Assembly: GCA_038279365.1 (NCBI GenBank)
Contig: JAYODI010000066.1
Coordinates: forward strand, 1 to 34,921
DNA from: Candidatus Latescibacterota bacterium
GTDB taxonomy: Bacteria; Latescibacterota; UBA2968
Direction of reading: 5' to 3'
Length of the DNA stretch: 34,921 bases
Shown here: piece by piece, positions 21,001 through 27,000 of the stretch
Numbering within the stretch: the stretch's first letter is position 1
How the letters are laid out: each line of letters starts with the position of its first letter
Program-made: the position numbers

Positions 21001-24000
21001 TAGCATGCGGGCTTTGCCCGATACGTCTACATAAACGCTGACATGGTGCACCACTTCACGTTCGTCGGGTAAGAGTTCTATGGCGGAGACAAATTGGTCT
21101 TGGGTGAGGTTGGTGGGCAACACAAAACATCGGTATTCATCGCGACCAATGGCTTCTACAGGATAAGCGGATTCGGGCTTAAGGATGAGATCGGGTTCAC
21201 CCAGTGTCCAACTGTTGGGAAAGTGAATGGGCTTGGGTGCTTGTTCGGGTTTGCCTTCGGGCATACTGGCTTCAACCCACTTCCCAAAGGTGGCTATTTC
21301 TTTGTCTGACAAACGACGTGAATGTTTAAATTCGCCATAACCGGGTTGCACTTTCCAAGGTGGCATAATGCGCGTTTCAATGGAGTCGCGCATTTGATGT
21401 GCCCAAGCCAGTACTTCCATATAATCAAAAAATGCGGCCCGTCCTATACCTCCAGGGCGGTGACAGGTTTGACACCGTTTTTGCAAAAAAGGGACAATGT
21501 CGCGATAAAATGTGGGCGTATCTGCCGTGATGTGAGAGGGTGTTTGTGGTTGTCGTCTGATTTCACATCCAAAGCTGGGGATGTTGGTTTGGGCAATTTC
21601 TTTATTCGCAAGCAAGGCGTCTAAAGCATCCCAAAGCCCACGTGAAGTGGTGTTTTCGGCAACACCCCATCCATTGTCAATTTCTCCGCGGTATCTCAGG
21701 GTGTGGTTTTGGTCAAATAAAAAGGCTTGGGGGGTGTGTGTGGCACCCAATTGATCTGCCAAGCTGTTGTTGGGGTCGCGATAGATGGGAAAGGGGACGG
21801 GGTTGTTTTGGTAGTGTTTTTTAAGGGCATCATTGGTTTCATTAAAGTTGGCATTAATGGCTACAATGCGCACACCCTTTGGACCATAGGTGTTGTGGAT
21901 TTGGGTTTGATGAATGTGATATTTAAGTGAGGCGGGGCAAACGATGGAATTGAAGACGAGAATCAGCGCGCGGTCATAGGTGAGATCTGAAAGGGCAATG
22001 GGAGTGCCGTCTAAATGGGTGAGTGACACGGCGGTCAATTTGTCACCTATTTCTAACGGTGCGGCTTGCAATGAAGCATATGCAAGCGTGAGGAATGTTA
22101 AGAGCGCAAACAATCGGGTTGCCATGAGCACCTCCAAGTTTTATGTGTTGCGCTTGCGAAGAAAGTCGATGAGAAAAGCCAAGGTAATGAGCCCCAAAAA
22201 AGCTGCGATGGAAACCACAATCCAATGACTTTCTTGGGGCAATCGCCAATATTGAACACCCACCAGAATGAGCGATGGCACAAAAAAGATAAGCGCCCCA
22301 AAGAGGGCATACGCTGCTTGATTGGCAGAGGGCAATGGGATTTCTGTGGGCTGAGATGTTTGGGGCGGGTTTTGTGTGGGTTGAATTTTGGGTGGGGTGG
22401 GGGCCATTTCTATGGGTTTGACATCGACTAGCATATTGATCACATCTTTGCGATATGCATTGTCGGCGGCATAATAGATGGTCCAAAATGCGTTAATTTC
22501 TTCGGCACCTACTTTGGTAAATTTTTTTTCGATATCTTGTTGTCTGTCTGCTGGCAGTGTTTCAACGGGATTGTCTTGGTTTTGTTTGAGGTCTTCTAAG
22601 ATTTGAGCCATGCTGGCGTCATAGCCATGGATCCAAGGAAAAGTGGCGTGTTGCAACAGTTTTTCATTTGGGTGTGCAGATGTAAATTCTTTGATATAAG
22701 CATCTGTGAGTTTTTTGCGCCCGATTTGTGGGCCTGCACCCGGAAAGTATTTGGCACGCAACTGATTGTTGTTTTTAAAGGGCAAATCGAGATGGTTGCG
22801 ATCTGCAATTTTTAGGATGCGTTGAAACGCTTCTGTGAGTGTTTTTCTGTCTGTCATAAATTAAAGAGGTGGTAAGAGGTGGATATGAGTAAATGAATGT
22901 GCGTAAAATAAACCGCAAATATATCTGAAGAGCAATAATAAAAAGGACGGGTATTCTCAAGGGAGAATACCCGTTTCAGTTTTCATGTTTAAGCATACGG
23001 ATCAATTTTCACAATACACGTATATGGGTTAATTGACAGATTTTCCGAAAGACTGTGCAAATGCCAAAAAGTCTGGGAAATCAACCGTGCCATTGTCATT
23101 GAGATCGTATAGCGGGTCATTGGCACCAAAAGCACGGGCAAAGCCGAGAAAATCTGGAAAGTCGATGGTACCTGATCCGTCAAAATCGGCACGTGGGTTG
23201 GCAGGGATAAAGATTGCCGTACCTGATAAACTGATATTAAGTGTGCCTTTTGCTGGGTCATCTGAGACAATGTTGATGGTGCCAGATAATGTGCTTTCTG
23301 TTTTTGGGGTGTAGGTGATGGTGATGTCTTTAGATGCACCAGCTGCAACCGTAAATTGTTTGGTTGAAATGCTGATGTCGGTCAAGGTGGTGGTGACGTT
23401 AGACACATTCAAAACACCTGGCCCATCATTGCGAATGGTGATGGTTTTTTGTACAGATTTGTTGAGTTCTGTTTGACCAAAGCTGATGCTTTCTTGCCCC
23501 AAAACAATATTCGGTGAAACTTTGCCCTCTATGGTGAGTTGTAGAATGGGCATTTGCAACTTATCAACCGCTGGATTGTTGTGGTTGAGTTCAATGGTAC
23601 CCGAAAATGTGCCTGGTTGTGTGGGCGTCAAGATGATTTTGACTGTTTTGGTTTCGTTTTTAGCAACAGTAAATGTCGCAGGTTCAATGACCACATCTTT
23701 GGGTGCGGTATAGCCTGTTATTTCAAGTGGACCATCGCCTGTATTGGCAACATTGAGATTCACGGTTTTGGATTCTCCCGCGTTGGCTTTGGTGCCAAAA
23801 TAAACCTGACGCAGAGAGAGGGCAATGACGGGGTTTTGATTGAGCAAGGCATCAACCATTTGGTTGACTTTGTAATAATTGTCGGTACCAGCGGCGTTGA
23901 TCCAAAGGCGAACAACACGATCTTGATCCAGCACAACAATGTCTTCTAAGCGTGCACCGGCATAATCGGTGCCATTGGATGCTTGGCGAAGCATGGGTAC

Positions 24001-27000
24001 TGTTACACCTGTAAACTGACGATAAGATTCTGCCTGTATAGGTGTGCCATTATATGTGTCGAGAACCATAATTTGTACATTGCTTTTGCTGCTGTTGGGT
24101 TGCACAATACCCGATTGGAAGAAGGGGCCCGCCCCTTGACAAACTGCTCAGTTGTAGCCGACAAAAAAAAGTACCGATACTTTTCCGGCGGCATTTTTGG
24201 TGCCGTGAAATTTTCCTTCTGTGCTTTGCAATTCAAACTCAGGCATTTTTTCACCCACACGTGGTTGTGCATGTGCTTGTGTGGTCAGGCCGATGCAAGC
24301 AGCGGTGATGAGTGAAAGTAATATCCATCTTCTCATGATAAAGCCTCCCCAGGTGGTCTTTTAATACGTGTGTTTTGCAAGCAATAACATTTGTTTTGAT
24401 GGCAACAAATCTACTAAATAATCATGATGTCTATCATAAAGACATCAGAGAAATAAACATGTCCAATAGGGTTTTGCAGGTGCTAAAGGGTTGTTTTTAT
24501 AGAAATATGATATTTAAAGATACATTCCTAATGGTATCTCATGCAAATATCGTTCTCAATGCGCATAAAAATAAAAAATCATGTCTTTCGGTTTTCAAAA
24601 TGGCACCAGGCTTTGGGCTTGATTTCGGTGATCTGATTCTCTACATTGTATTACCCAATCCCAGCGTTACTACAACGCTTGAACCGCTATTTCTGTTCCA
24701 TTTGTGAATAATCTATGTCATTATCCCCCAATCATTTTGATGCACTGATGCAACGTGCCATCACCTTGCGCGACACGGGTCACTTTGAGGCAGCATTGGC
24801 CGATTTTAATCAGGCCATTGCATCTGATGGTCACCAAGCTGAGGCATTTGTGCATCGGGGCATTGCATATGGGCAGATGGGGCGTTTCGATGCGGCATTG
24901 GCCGATTTGAATCGCGCAGTGACTCTTGCCCCCGAAAATGTGTGGGTATGGATGCATCGGGCGATTGCTTGTGGTTTGATGGGTCACTTTGATGAGGCCA
25001 TCAACAGCTTTAACCAGGCTCTTGTTTTAGACCCCAACGATACACAGGTGTTGGCCAGTCGGGGTGAAACGTTGCGGGAAATGAGACGTTATGACGAGGC
25101 CTTGGTAGACTTTAACCGTGTGATTGCGTTGGATAATGGGTATTTGGGTGCGTGGATCAACCGAGGGCATACATATATTCAATTGGGCCAATTGGATGAT
25201 GCGTTGGCTGATTTTCAATATGTTTTACAAGTGTCAGAAGGGCATCCCAATGCTTTGTTGGGGCAAGGTGAAGTTTGTCGTCGTCAAGGGCGTTTCGATG
25301 AGGCACGGGTGGCTTTTTCAAATGTTTTGAAACGCGTGCCCGAACATGTTGGCGCGCTCATTGGGCGGGGAGAGACGCATCGACAAATGGGACAACATCA
25401 AGCCGCTTTAGCCGATTTTGATCAGGTTTTGGCATTGCAGCCCAACCGGATTGATGCGTTGGCGGGGCGGGGCACAACGGTTGCCGAATTGGGCCGGTTT
25501 GATGAGGCCATTGCCAACTTTAAACGTGCAGCAGAGCTGGCCCCCCAAGATGGGGATGTGTGGGCTGGATTAGGCGATGTTTTGCGGCAAGCTGGGCGCT
25601 TGCATGAGGCTGTCACGGCATTTTCTCGTGCGTTGGCGTTAATGCCCAATAATTTTTGGGCATTATTAGGGCGTGGGGTTTCTTTGAGAATGGATCATGA
25701 CTTAGAAGCGGCCCTGGATGATTTTGAAGCGGCATTAAAATTGAATGACCGCGATGCTTGGGTGTGGACACACAAAGGTGAAACCTTGCGCCAGTTAGGG
25801 CGTTATGACGCGGCTGTTGCCGATTTTACAAAGGCATTGGCTTTGGACAATGATTTTGTTTGGGCATTGGAATGTCGCAGTGAAAGTTATCGTCAAATGG
25901 GGCGTTTTGTTGAGGCGCTTGACGATATGAATCGGGTGAAGGCACTATGAACGATGTCGGTAAGATTGTAAATGCAGATCGCACAGTGCCATTTGCCAAA
26001 ACGATTTCTCGATTTGGTGAAGCCCTCAAAAAAAAGAGTCGATTTTGTACGCGGGCACGCCATTTTTACAATACGATTTGGATTGCCGATTGTTATACAG
26101 ACTATGTTCAAGCTGCTTTGTTTCGAAAATATGAAGGCCCATTAAGAGAAGGTATTGCCTTGCGCACAATGGGTAAGGGGCTTTCTAAGTCTCAGGTGTT
26201 GGCCGGTGCGATGGCCGAAGCTGTGGAGCGCATTTCTTTTTTTGATGCGCTGGCGACTGGGCGCCATACTCCCATTTATGAGCTGACACCCGATGTGGAA
26301 TTGGTTCCTACACAGTTAAAAGCATCAGAAATACCTCATCTCAATGATTCTGCCAACGGTGTTTCGGCGGGTAATACAGTTTTGGAGTGTGTGTTTCATG
26401 GTTTGTTGGAGATGCACGAACATTTGGATGTGGGATTGCATTTCCCGTTTCCAGGGTTGGCACATCGGCAGTTTATCGACCCCACTCTGACGGGGTTTGC
26501 GCCTCATGTTGCCAAGCGCATGTTGGCCGTGGCCGCACCGGGAGAAAATGAAAAAGTGACCACTGTTCATGCGGTGGTTTGCCCAAAAGATTTGGGTCCT
26601 TTGGTGCGCACCTGCACACACTTAGATGGGCGCATTGCCTTACAACGTGCTTTTAATGAGACAGTGCAAAGTCACAAAACCCGATATGCATCTGATTTAC
26701 AAATGTTTGGCCCAGAAATTTCTCTGTGGGATTTGCCCAATCATTTTACTGATGACTTGAAAAAGGACATCCAAGTGGTTTTAAGTGGCATGAAAGAACC
26801 TGTTTATGTTCAAGATTGGACCGATCCTGATATGCAAATTCCCGTATTTCGCCCATTTAGCTCCAAAACGGTTGCTCAAAAAAGAGACCATGTTGTGATT
26901 GAAACTTATGTACAACGCATTATGGCGGAGGCCGAAAATTATATTGTCTGGGAGTAGTTCATTTTAACCAAGGTGTTGTGGTGTGGTGCCGGGGATATCA

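Follow-up and report, generated by a model that had tools for sequence, protein, structure and literature searches.

A predicted exported selenocysteine redoxin with an Ig-like stalk and a dockerin-like module in a Latescibacterota bacterium

The DNA analysed here is a stretch of 34,921 nucleotides (below called the window) from a Candidatus Latescibacterota bacterium (assembly GCA_038279365.1, contig JAYODI010000066.1). One of its genes probably encodes an exported selenocysteine (Sec) containing redoxin, predicted to act as a thiol-disulfide redox enzyme, which a stalk of Ig-like domains and a dockerin would tether to cohesins at the cell surface. The catalytic type is known among selenoproteins, and the modular architecture is the new part. 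The analysis was computational throughout.

Results

Gene structure and family

The features of the gene are collected in Table 1. The preliminary description had treated it as one gene, and the conceptual translation bears this out, with 435 residues, exactly one in-frame TGA and a terminal TAA. A signal-peptide-like layout is seen in the sequences of 30/30 trimmed relatives, where the signal peptide is likewise putative. In public databases, genes of this family are cut off at the TGA and labelled as truncated proteins of unknown function.

Table 1. Features of the selenoprotein candidate gene in the window
Feature	Position	Strand	Basis or remark
Whole gene, Sec-redoxin-Ig-Ig-dockerin protein	23029..24336	-	435 codons and TAA stop
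Shine-Dalgarno-like GGAGG, 7 nt before the ATG at 24336	24344..24348	-	read from sequence
Signal-peptide-like N-terminus, residues 1-23 (MRRW..., hydrophobic core, AHA then QP)	24268..24336	-	sequence
TlpA/ResA-like thioredoxin-fold domain (AhpC-TSA/Redoxin), residues ~26-170	23827..24261	-	profile and model
In-frame TGA, putative U63, first position of the UxxC redox motif, partner C66	24148..24150	-	sequence
SECIS-like hairpin AAGGGG-CGGG-CCCCUU, 6 bp, 4-nt G-rich loop	24122..24137	-	first paired base ~10-11 nt after UGA
Ig-like domain 1 (ASH/DUF1573/HYDIN-type), residues ~175-270	23527..23814	-	profile and model
Ig-like domain 2 (ASH/DUF1573/choice-of-anchor D), residues ~274-375	23212..23517	-	profile and model
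Dockerin-like module, two F-hand segments (DFDGSGTIDFPDFLGFARAFG ... DLNDNGTVDFPDFLAFAQSFG), residues 381-435	23032..23196	-	profile and model

The protein has two paralogues in the same genome, on other contigs (C9 and C43); positions 8479-9507 of the window itself hold no gene. The C9 paralogue also has a TGA (8713-8715, context GYNUGTCLAAGP), and the one at C43:5488-6804 is a Cys form (GYNCAPCVGAGP). Both had been announced earlier, the latter with an identity of 42%, for which recomputation gives 45-47%. The family is indeed multi-copy, with three copies here and up to six matches per relative. Its spread, previously put at 41 of 101 sampled genomes, had been drawn too narrowly: homologues are matched in 50/53 genomes of the order and 103/168 of the phylum.

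Selenocysteine decoding and conservation of the TGA

The genes selA, selB and selD and that for tRNA-Sec lie together on one contig (C34; SelA 506.6 bits, SelB wing 71 bits, selD 366.7 bits, tRNA-SeC (tca)), and selD itself carries one TGA. TGA terminates 382 of the 1750 long ORFs of the genome and is therefore a normal stop in it.

Among the order-level matches, of which 96 rows were listed, a hand count gives 85 with exactly one TGA, nine with none, one with a single TAA, and one with a TGA and a TAA. The codon persists beyond the order, in sister families (f3 and f4), and is conserved down to ~25-30% identity. Among 31 fetched loci, which include the window itself and one duplicate record, 30 have U in a G[YWFH][NA]UxxC context, and the exception is a Cys form. 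This conservation is far beyond chance. Residues ahead of the TGA are conserved as well, with G28, F34, L36 and G60 invariant in the alignment; U63, C66 and P114 (a candidate cis-Pro) are invariant in 24 sequences. In the context GYNUAVCQGAGP, the GYN-U-AV-C segment falls on the CxxC of TlpA/ResA-type redoxins, with U63 on its first Cys, as seen for 2ls5 and ResA, and U63 is also aligned with Cys in three homologues (C43, L064 and L088).

Bacterial SECIS elements are stem-loops that lie a short way behind the UGA and contain G in the apical loop. The window copy has a stem-loop of this kind, with the loop CGGG and a 6-bp stem that starts at a distance of 10 nt from the UGA. Each of the 49 distinct Sec sequences can form at least 4 bp within +9..+33 (at least 5 bp in 47/49), and all their loops contain G and start 15-19 nt after the UGA. 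The hairpins are more stable than those of 300 synonymous recodings, with a mean z of -2.47 (37/48 in the lowest 5%; window copy -2.36). An earlier claim of a conserved GYN[U]xxCxGAGP motif with a GGGGCGGGCCCC hairpin about 13 nt downstream stands for U and for the presence of a hairpin, but not for xGAGP or the exact GGGGCGGGCCCC as universal features. In other subfamilies the encoded peptide is YRTGPS, RAAAPL, LSRAES or IAEAAN and a different hairpin occupies the same place, and the stem sequence changes where the peptide does, as in the LSRAES and IAEAAN forms. The hairpin is small: a 61-nt stretch shows no stability beyond that of shuffled sequences (z +1.0), nor does a 45-nt stretch of the window copy when compared with recodings (z +0.14). 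RNAalifold on the codon alignment finds no consensus pairs, because the register of the hairpin floats. Two of three Cys forms retain a comparable hairpin (z -1.6 and -1.3), so recent descent or the GAGP-type peptide may account for part of the signal. Taken together, the Sec machinery, the alignment of U with Cys, the conserved TGA and the SECIS-like hairpin support the prediction, also made in the preliminary description, that the gene encodes a selenoprotein.

Redoxin domain

The window copy scores just below the Pfam cut-off for AhpC-TSA, as reported before (PF00578, 25.5 against 26 bits), and also below that for Redoxin (PF08534, 21.0 against 26.6). Relatives aligned end to end on AhpC-TSA reach 29.4, 53.7, 50.5 and 26.9 bits, and a further set 38.7-65.7. 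In the AF2 model (pLDDT 87.2), a strand (53-59) is followed by U63 and a helix (64-81), so that UxxC marks the start of helix 1, which follows strand 1, as expected for a thioredoxin fold. Foldseek superposes the model on 2ls5 and ResA structures (TM 0.74-0.78, rmsd 2.3-3.0). The assignment of a redoxin-like N-terminal domain is supported by relatives at 50-66 bits and by the model.

Ig-like stalk, dockerin-like module and cohesins

The Ig-like domains proposed earlier are recovered by profile (ASH, 68.8 bits) and model. Among the forms seen, proteins have 1, 2, 3, 5 or ~14 Ig repeats.

Dockerins consist of two tandem ~22-residue segments, each with a calcium loop (D-x-D/N-x-S/D-G-x-I/V-D-x-x-D) followed by a helix. 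The C-terminal module has two such segments, DFDGSGTIDFPDF... and DLNDNGTVDFPDF..., with helices at 393-402 and 420-429 in the model. Its dockerin_GC score (24.5 bits, cut-off 29) is the one given before, and the assignment is now firmer: the family profile of the module matches the cellulosomal dockerin 2y3n_B, which has a solved structure, with E 4.3e-10 over positions 6-60 of 62, across both segments, and also 4wi0_B and 4u3s_B. The module occurs in 53 ORFs of the genome, in most of them terminally, and in two it exceeds the Dockerin_1 cut-off (38.4 and 31.6 bits). Other proteins tagged with it are sulfatases, polysaccharide lyases, subtilases, metallopeptidases and a multihaem cytochrome. 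Cohesin (PF00963) has 13 matches above cut-off, in 11 ORFs. Seven of these ORFs end in Por_Secre_tail, the type IX secretion system (T9SS) sorting domain, and SprA is present.

The window protein ends in the dockerin module and has no T9SS type A sorting domain (Por_Secre_tail). In all six f4 homologues scanned, the UxxC redoxin is combined with a FlgD_ig/T9SS sorting domain (FlgD_ig 29.9-42.5 bits) in place of a dockerin; the one compared with TIGR04183 reaches 40.3 bits (cut-off 23). New here are a Sec-redoxin ending directly in a T9SS sorting domain and an Ig stalk of 1 to ~14 repeats.

Discussion

The data are best accounted for by the following scheme. The UGA would be decoded as Sec by SelA, SelB, SelD and tRNA-Sec, probably helped by the small downstream hairpin, and a Sec-type signal peptide would export the protein from the cytoplasm. 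In the predicted TlpA/ResA-type thioredoxin fold, U63-x-x-C66 would open helix 1. By analogy with the family, the selenolate would attack a disulfide, or some other centre of oxidised sulfur or selenium, in the substrate, C66 would resolve the mixed selenenylsulfide, and some donor would re-reduce the Se-S bond. The two Ig-like domains would serve as a stalk, and the dockerin would tether the enzyme to cohesin-bearing proteins, most of which carry T9SS sorting domains and for that reason should be at the cell surface. The redoxin would thereby be held at the distal end of the stalk, with the dockerin-tagged sulfatases, lyases, subtilases, metallopeptidases and multihaem cytochrome as its likely neighbours. 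We infer cohesin binding, outer-membrane export, catalysis, a substrate and an electron donor.

Surface display or docking, as originally suggested, is the best reading because of the dockerin evidence, the T9SS-tailed cohesin ORFs and the f4 homologues that swap the dockerin for a sorting domain; localisation and docking would follow from these. Against it, proteins with the dockerin lack a T9SS tail themselves, and a reductase at the surface lacks an obvious electron donor: the sole DsbD-type membrane match is an inner-membrane one and contains a TAA. An alternative is a true selenoprotein that stays in the periplasm as a TlpA/ResA-like reductase, takes part in the maturation of cytochromes c or copper centres, receives its electrons from a CcdA/DsbD-type protein, and uses its Ig and dockerin-like parts merely to organise periplasmic complexes. 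In favour of this, the nearest relatives of known structure belong to the ResA and DsbE types, a DsbD_TM match occurs in the genome, and the protein itself lacks a signal for outer-membrane export. Exported redox proteins also abound around the gene, with multihaem cytochromes at 27878-33009 and a redoxin/Cu-monooxygenase-like gene two genes downstream that is conserved in 6/6 genomes. We nevertheless consider a periplasmic role unlikely, though it is the most serious of the alternatives. The sorting domain of the f4 homologues sends cargo over the outer membrane, as should the tails of 7/11 cohesin ORFs, the dockerin-like module also occurs in sulfatases, lyases and proteases whose substrates are external polymers, and up to ~14 Ig repeats fit a periplasmic maturation factor poorly.

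It appears improbable that the enzyme is instead a surface or exported peroxidase, a peroxiredoxin-like antioxidant whose Sec reduces peroxides rather than exchanging disulfides. Peroxiredoxins have a PxxxT/SxxC motif around the peroxidatic Cys. This motif is missing here, since SVLFFVGYNU has L56 and G60 at positions -7 and -3 from U63, and we have rejected a classification as a peroxiredoxin proper. UxxC starts helix 1, as in thioredoxin-like oxidoreductases, and both by sequence and by fold the protein comes closest to ResA and a putative disulfide isomerase. These findings outweigh the facts that Sec is typical of peroxidases, that the best Pfam family, AhpC/TSA, includes peroxiredoxins, and that there are weak NCBIfam matches to thiol peroxidases. 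The PxxxT/SxxC motif of peroxiredoxins is also quoted in a 2026 review of selenoproteins (PMC13188914).

Slightly less probable still is a C-terminal module that serves just as a pair of calcium-binding EF-hands, for stability or calcium sensing, and does not bind cohesin, the protein being secreted free or anchored by other means. In isolation, the module of the window copy has EF-hand_1 as the sole Pfam family above cut-off (31.4 against 25.4, with Dockerin_1 at 16.4 against 22.9), and many calmodulins appear in the profile search. However, the calmodulins align over a single 17-residue loop, and only the dockerins cover both segments and the linker. Paralogous modules pass Dockerin_1, cohesins are encoded in the same genome, and most of the 53 ORFs with the module have it at a terminus. 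Finally, it is very hard to believe that the gene does not encode a selenoprotein, with the TGA acting as a true stop (in a pseudogene or between two genes) or decoded as some other amino acid: public gene calls do start after it (entries of 295-371 residues) and Rfam has no match in the window, but it occupies one column in 85/96 rows with conserved coding sequence on both sides, aligns with a catalytic Cys, and lies in a genome that has the full Sec machinery and uses TGA as an ordinary stop elsewhere, and the downstream fragment alone would lack the signal peptide and the catalytic domain.

With respect to known systems, the exported Sec-redoxin is closest to two groups listed in Table 1 of the review (PMC13188914), namely the Sec-containing Prx-like thiol:disulfide oxidoreductases (PF00578, UxxC) and the thiol-disulfide isomerase-like/TlpA family (cd02966, UxxC or UGC). 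As described there, these share with it the AhpC-TSA/TlpA thioredoxin fold, Sec as the first residue of UxxC, Cys homologues and a SECIS-type hairpin after the UGA. The catalytic kind is thus already a known selenoprotein type, and the novelty is therefore that of a variant in architecture. By their description, the known types are set apart from the present one, in which the domain heads a modular exported protein with a signal peptide, 1 to ~14 Ig-like repeats and a dockerin or T9SS domain; the words 'dockerin', 'Ig-like' and 'Latescibacter' do not occur in the text of the review. The OS_HP2/DUF1573 (UGC) selenoproteins (NF041425; PF07610), found in tables of PMC2398784 and PMC13188914, have DUF1573/ASH-type Ig-like domains in common with our protein, which matches NF041425 weakly (25.3 bits, cut-off 100). 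Membership was ruled out, because their Sec lies inside the DUF1573 domain, whereas here the Ig-like domains are free of Sec, which is in the redoxin domain.

ResA/TlpA-type proteins are membrane-anchored and serve cytochrome c maturation. Those of known structure (Bacillus ResA and TlpA-type 4nmu, 1su9, 3c71 and 2h1b; Bacteroides 2ls5) share the fold, the CxxC position and the extracytoplasmic location, but use Cys and are single-domain, whereas the present protein is ~20% identical, uses Sec and adds a stalk and a docking module. Cellulosomal dockerin enzymes, such as the family-48 glycoside hydrolase (2y3n_B), resemble it in the duplicated terminal F-hand module, the cohesins in the genome and the tagging of many exo-enzymes, but here the cargo is a redox selenoenzyme and not a carbohydrate-active enzyme. 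Clostridial cellulosomes are anchored by S-layer-homology domains. In contrast, most cohesin carriers here end in T9SS sorting domains, an anchoring of the diderm FCB type. Cellulosome-affiliated enzymes have been reported for Latescibacteria (Farag et al. 2017, as cited in PMC7081726).

As we infer it, the Sec-redoxin most likely serves a degradative assembly at the cell surface with an auxiliary thiol-disulfide (redox) activity. More speculatively, this may be a class-wide family: Sec thiol-disulfide oxidoreductases on Ig stalks of variable length, on the outer face of diderm cells, might be held by dockerins in T9SS-anchored cohesin scaffolds in some lineages, and directly by a T9SS sorting domain in others, and provide the redox 'auxiliary activity' of the extracellular degradative assembly. 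If so, they might, for example, help the proteases, sulfatases and lyases docked beside them by opening the disulfides that cross-link glycoprotein or algal-wall substrates, and the co-docked multihaem cytochrome or sulfide from the environment might supply the electrons. Dockerin cargo devoid of an export signal of its own may leave the cell together with T9SS-tailed cohesin partners.

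The selenoprotein gene and its conservation

The gene under study is a single frame of 435 codons, with GGAGG 7 nt upstream of its ATG at 24336 (as read from the sequence) and TAA at its end. The preliminary description placed one in-frame TGA in it, which the translation bears out; read as selenocysteine, this codon becomes U63 within FFVGYN-U-AV-C-QGAGP. The ORF of a standard caller, of 358 aa, takes a GTG 3' of the TGA as its start. The source genome, 6.03 Mb in 199 contigs, encodes selA (506.6 bits), the selB wing domain (71 bits), selD (366.7 bits, with one in-frame TGA of its own) and one copy of tRNA-SeC(tca), clustered on one contig (loci L001, L005 and L026). 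Genome-wide recoding of TGA is ruled out, because this codon closes 382 of the 1750 stop-to-stop frames that span 400 codons or more and is thus a normal stop.

Using the N-terminal 177 residues as the query, matches were found in 50 of the 53 genomes of the order (29/30 in family f1 and 20/22 in f2). By hand count, exactly one TGA is present in 85 of the 96 matching rows. It is missing from nine, four of which are good full matches, i.e. Cys forms; one further row has a TAA, and one has a TGA and a TAA. At the level of the phylum, 103 of 168 genomes match, with the sister families f3 (2/3) and f4 (49/76) added and just 2 of 36 genomes in ten other families, and nearly all rows retain one TGA, down to about 25% identity. 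The U of G/A/S-[YWFH]-x-U-x-x-C is found in 30 of 31 fetched loci and 24 of 25 further ORFs, the exceptions having Cys. The protein is also conserved 5' of the TGA, with G28, F34, L36 and G60 invariant in 24 sequences. This is a real and strongly conserved selenoprotein family. The gene in the window very probably encodes a selenoprotein, and selenocysteine is predicted to be incorporated at U63. In f2, Sec-redoxin genes form tandem arrays of two or three, with a spacing of about 1 kb (genomes G002, G007, G009, G013 and G015); in the tandem of three in G002, one is a Cys form.

The Sec paralogue reported at 8479-9507 exists on contig C9, and the window, which is contig C49, holds no gene at these positions. 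Its TGA, as had been stated, begins at 8713 (8713-8715, in GYNUGTCLAAGP), and it has one Ig domain. The Cys paralogue on contig C43 (GYNCAPCVGAGP) is likewise present, with an identity of 45-47%, not 42%. In a midpoint-rooted tree of 57 redoxin domains, three Cys forms are nested among Sec forms at two places: the C43 protein and L088 are together sister to the clade of the window's gene (support 99/94), and L064 lies within the f2 clade. Sec is therefore probably the ancestral state of the family.

In a collection of 5.8 billion proteins, the relatives appear as entries of 295-371 residues that start 3' of the TGA and are named 'choice-of-anchor D domain-containing protein', 'DUF1573 domain-containing protein' or 'hypothetical'. 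None of the family's entries is flagged as a selenoprotein, and the few full-length ones (440-455 residues) are presumably Cys forms. Since the records are cut at the TGA, the catalytic domain is invisible to annotation-based surveys.

Coordinates of the features (window positions unless a contig or locus is named)
Feature	Position	Strand	Remarks
Selenoprotein gene	23029-24336	-	
In-frame TGA	24148-24150	-	
Standard-caller ORF	23029-24105	-	
Hairpin	24122-24137	-	
238-aa protein	22141-22857	-	downstream of selenoprotein gene; no Pfam/NCBIfam match
600-aa redoxin and Cu(II)-monooxygenase-like protein	20335-22137	-	start overlaps upstream 238-aa gene by 4 nt
TPR protein	18679-20277	-	downstream of selenoprotein gene
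Divergent gene row	24715-33009	+	TPR, YcaO-like (52.7 bits), FGE-sulfatase-like, two large multihaem-cytochrome/HEAT/TPR proteins
Sec paralogue	C9:8479-9507		
Cys paralogue	C43:5488-6804		
selA, selB, selD, tRNA-Sec	C34:31297-36924		
DsbD_TM match	C31:87943-88575	-	116.4 bits
915-aa cytochrome protein (L117)	C57:3437-6181		
Multi-Ig paralogue (genome G047)	L076:1360-6444	-	1695 aa
Serine hydrolase fusion (genome G115, f4)	L083:1851-3779	+	

A hairpin downstream of the UGA

At a distance of 10 nt 3' of the UGA, AAGGGG-CGGG-CCCCUU forms a stem of 6 bp (-8.5 kcal/mol). Because the codons of the conserved peptide QGAGPF make up this hairpin, the eight codons of each sequence were compared with 300 synonymously recoded versions, in a local 24-nt window. 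The mean z over 48 distinct Sec sequences is -2.47, with 37 of them in the lowest 5% of the recodings and 46 in the lowest 20%; the window copy has a z of -2.36 (fraction 0.03). All 49 distinct Sec sequences, C9 included, have a hairpin of at least 4 bp (at least 5 bp in 47; -7 kcal/mol or lower in 44), with a loop that starts 15-19 nt 3' of the UGA and always contains a G. Where the peptide has changed, the stem has changed and kept its position: CUCUCG-CGUGC-CGAGAG for LSRAES, UCGCGG-AGG-CCGCGA for IAEAAN and CGGAC...GUCCG for YRTGPS.

The folding signal is clear in the local 24-nt window only. In the window copy, the 61 nt 3' of the UGA are no more stable than shuffles (z +1.0), and a 45-nt stretch compared with synonymous recodings gives z +0.14 (mean -1.44 over 48 sequences). 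RNAalifold found no consensus pairs in a codon-register alignment of 34 sequences because the hairpin has a floating register, whose i+j differs by as much as 5-6 from one subfamily to another, and Rfam has zero matches in the window at gathering thresholds. Values for Cys forms are mixed (z -1.6 for the C43 paralogue, -1.3 for L064 and +1.3 for L088); in view of the nesting of these forms among Sec forms, their hairpin may be a remnant.

The redoxin head

Residues 26-170 match 2ls5 (E 2.7e-6) and ResA 4nmu, with U63 aligned to the first Cys of their CxxC, and the best NCBIfam redoxin match is also ResA. The Pfam score of the window copy does fall just short of the cut-off, as noted before (AhpC-TSA, 25.5 against 26 bits); relatives reach 26.9-65.7 bits. 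An AlphaFold model built with 24 sequences has a pLDDT of 87.2 and a pTM of 0.48, i.e. its domains are good and their relative placement is poor. In it, strand 53-59 is followed by U63 and helix 64-81, and the model superposes on the 2ls5 and ResA structures with TM scores of 0.74-0.78. The peroxiredoxin motif PxxxTxxC is absent from the domain. The selenoprotein families OS_HP2 (25.3 bits) and TUGYCR (16.4 bits) are ruled out, each against a cut-off of 100. The head is in all likelihood a TlpA-like oxidoreductase.

Prx-like and TlpA-like selenoproteins with a UxxC motif are listed in excerpts of a 2026 review (PMC13188914) and also of the GOS survey (PMC2398784). The catalytic kind is therefore known, in line with the preliminary description, and what is new in the family is the modular architecture. 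The same excerpts, and those of PMC9312934, do not mention signal peptides, dockerins or surface display, and the words 'secreted', 'signal peptide' and 'dockerin' are absent from the two selenoproteome reviews searched. Outside subscription papers and supplements, the literature yielded no relevant report that pairs a selenoprotein with a dockerin, or selenocysteine with type IX secretion. To our knowledge, the bacterial selenoproteins described so far are cytoplasmic or periplasmic nearly without exception.

Stalk, dockerin-like module and cohesins

The N-terminus, MRRWILLSLITAACIGLTTQAHA/QP, has the look of a Sec signal peptide, as does that of all 30 trimmed relatives. Two Ig-like domains of the ASH/DUF1573/HYDIN/choice-of-anchor-D kind follow at residues ~175-375, as described (68.8 and 87.9 bits). 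Dockerin forms differ in the number of these repeats: 1 (343 aa), 2, 3, 5 (786 aa) or about 14 (1695 aa). The longest, L076, combines a Sec-redoxin head and a dockerin with near-identical repeats; shorter versions are found at L074 and L075.

In the first set, the 29 relatives that are complete all end in the same duplicated segment, and two more lack it where contig ends cut them off. In isolation, the module passes EF-hand models alone (31.4 against 25.4) and stays under the Dockerin_1 cut-off (16.4 against 22.9). With a profile of 22 modules, the best solved relative is the cellulosomal GH48 dockerin 2y3n_B (E 4.3e-10, positions 6-60 of 62), followed by the scaffoldin dockerins 4wi0_B and 4u3s_B; calmodulins match in one loop only. 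A module HMM finds 53 ORFs in the source genome. A scan of 36 carriers gave two that pass Dockerin_1 (38.4 and 31.6 bits), and the cargo domains include sulfatase, chondroitinase B, heparinase II/III, two subtilases, M28 and M10 peptidases, FGE-sulfatase, YHYH, DUF2330, DUF1501, NHL/FG-GAP proteins and an MtrC-like multihaem cytochrome. Cohesin (PF00963) has 13 matches above the cut-off in 11 ORFs of this genome, seven of which end with a Por_Secre_tail match (on C80, C104, C127, C96 and C57, with a further two on C53). In total, 22 of these tails are encoded in the genome, along with an SprA/Sov homologue. The profile match, the 53 module ORFs and the cohesins strengthen the dockerin reading, with the selenoprotein's own copy still under the Dockerin_1 cut-off. 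A complex predicted for residues 374-435 and the C80 cohesin, one of the 11 cohesin ORFs, scored 0.16 (mark 0.32) and speaks neither for nor against binding; the module is predicted to bind cohesin.

Enzymes affiliated with cellulosomes have been published before for Latescibacteria (Farag et al. 2017, as cited in PMC7081726). In the L117 protein, MtrC-like multihaem cytochrome domains occur together with a dockerin-like module, a T9SS sorting domain and a weak cohesin match (23.7 bits, below the cut-off); it is possibly a surface electron conduit inside the same docking network.

Neighbourhood and location of the protein

The 238-aa protein contains a linker rich in Pro and Gln, with hydrophobic segments towards the C-terminus, and its gene lies directly 3' of the selenoprotein gene in 18 fetched f1 loci and six complete genomes. 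The 600-aa protein is exported. Besides a Redoxin/AhpC-TSA domain (50 bits), whose site is of the CxxS type, it contains domains resembling copper type II monooxygenases (Cu2_monoox_C, 33 bits) and the haem-c-like motif CQTCH. Its identity is 69-70% in six of six genomes of another genus, in which the selenoprotein is less conserved (47-52%). In all six, which are complete, the order selenoprotein, 238-aa, 600-aa and TPR protein is kept. As this cluster is conserved within one family only, it may reflect inheritance rather than function, and synteny was dropped as a functional clue. The TPR-YcaO pair upstream of the selenoprotein gene is also kept in f1.

The Sec-redoxin homologues of f4 end differently. 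The dockerin module is absent from them (module HMM, nine ORFs), and in the six scanned an acidic linker leads to a FlgD_ig end (29.9-42.5 bits, cut-off 27); Por_Secre_tail falls slightly below the Pfam cut-off in two of these, and the single homologue tested matches the NCBIfam T9SS type A sorting domain (40.3 against 23). In the 57-domain tree, all of these homologues are inside the f4 clade, and its sister f3 has dockerins. In L083, a beta-lactamase-family (serine hydrolase) domain (216.5 bits) stands between the Sec-redoxin and the T9SS-type tail.

One catalytic head is thus combined with two unrelated means of attachment and with a stalk whose length varies; we take this as the strongest argument that the head is meant for display outside the cell. 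A reductase that acts in the periplasm would fit the exported redox protein genes adjoining the selenoprotein gene and the DsbD-type membrane match of the source genome; the latter, the sole DsbD_TM match, contains an in-frame TAA, and the locus may be broken or consist of two genes. We consider such a periplasmic role unlikely, and somewhat favour surface display by docking.

If the selenoenzyme is indeed displayed on the surface, selenium chemistry would be part of the machinery by which an abundant, uncultured lineage of marine and sediment habitats degrades material outside the cell, and cohesin-dockerin systems would gain a redox component.
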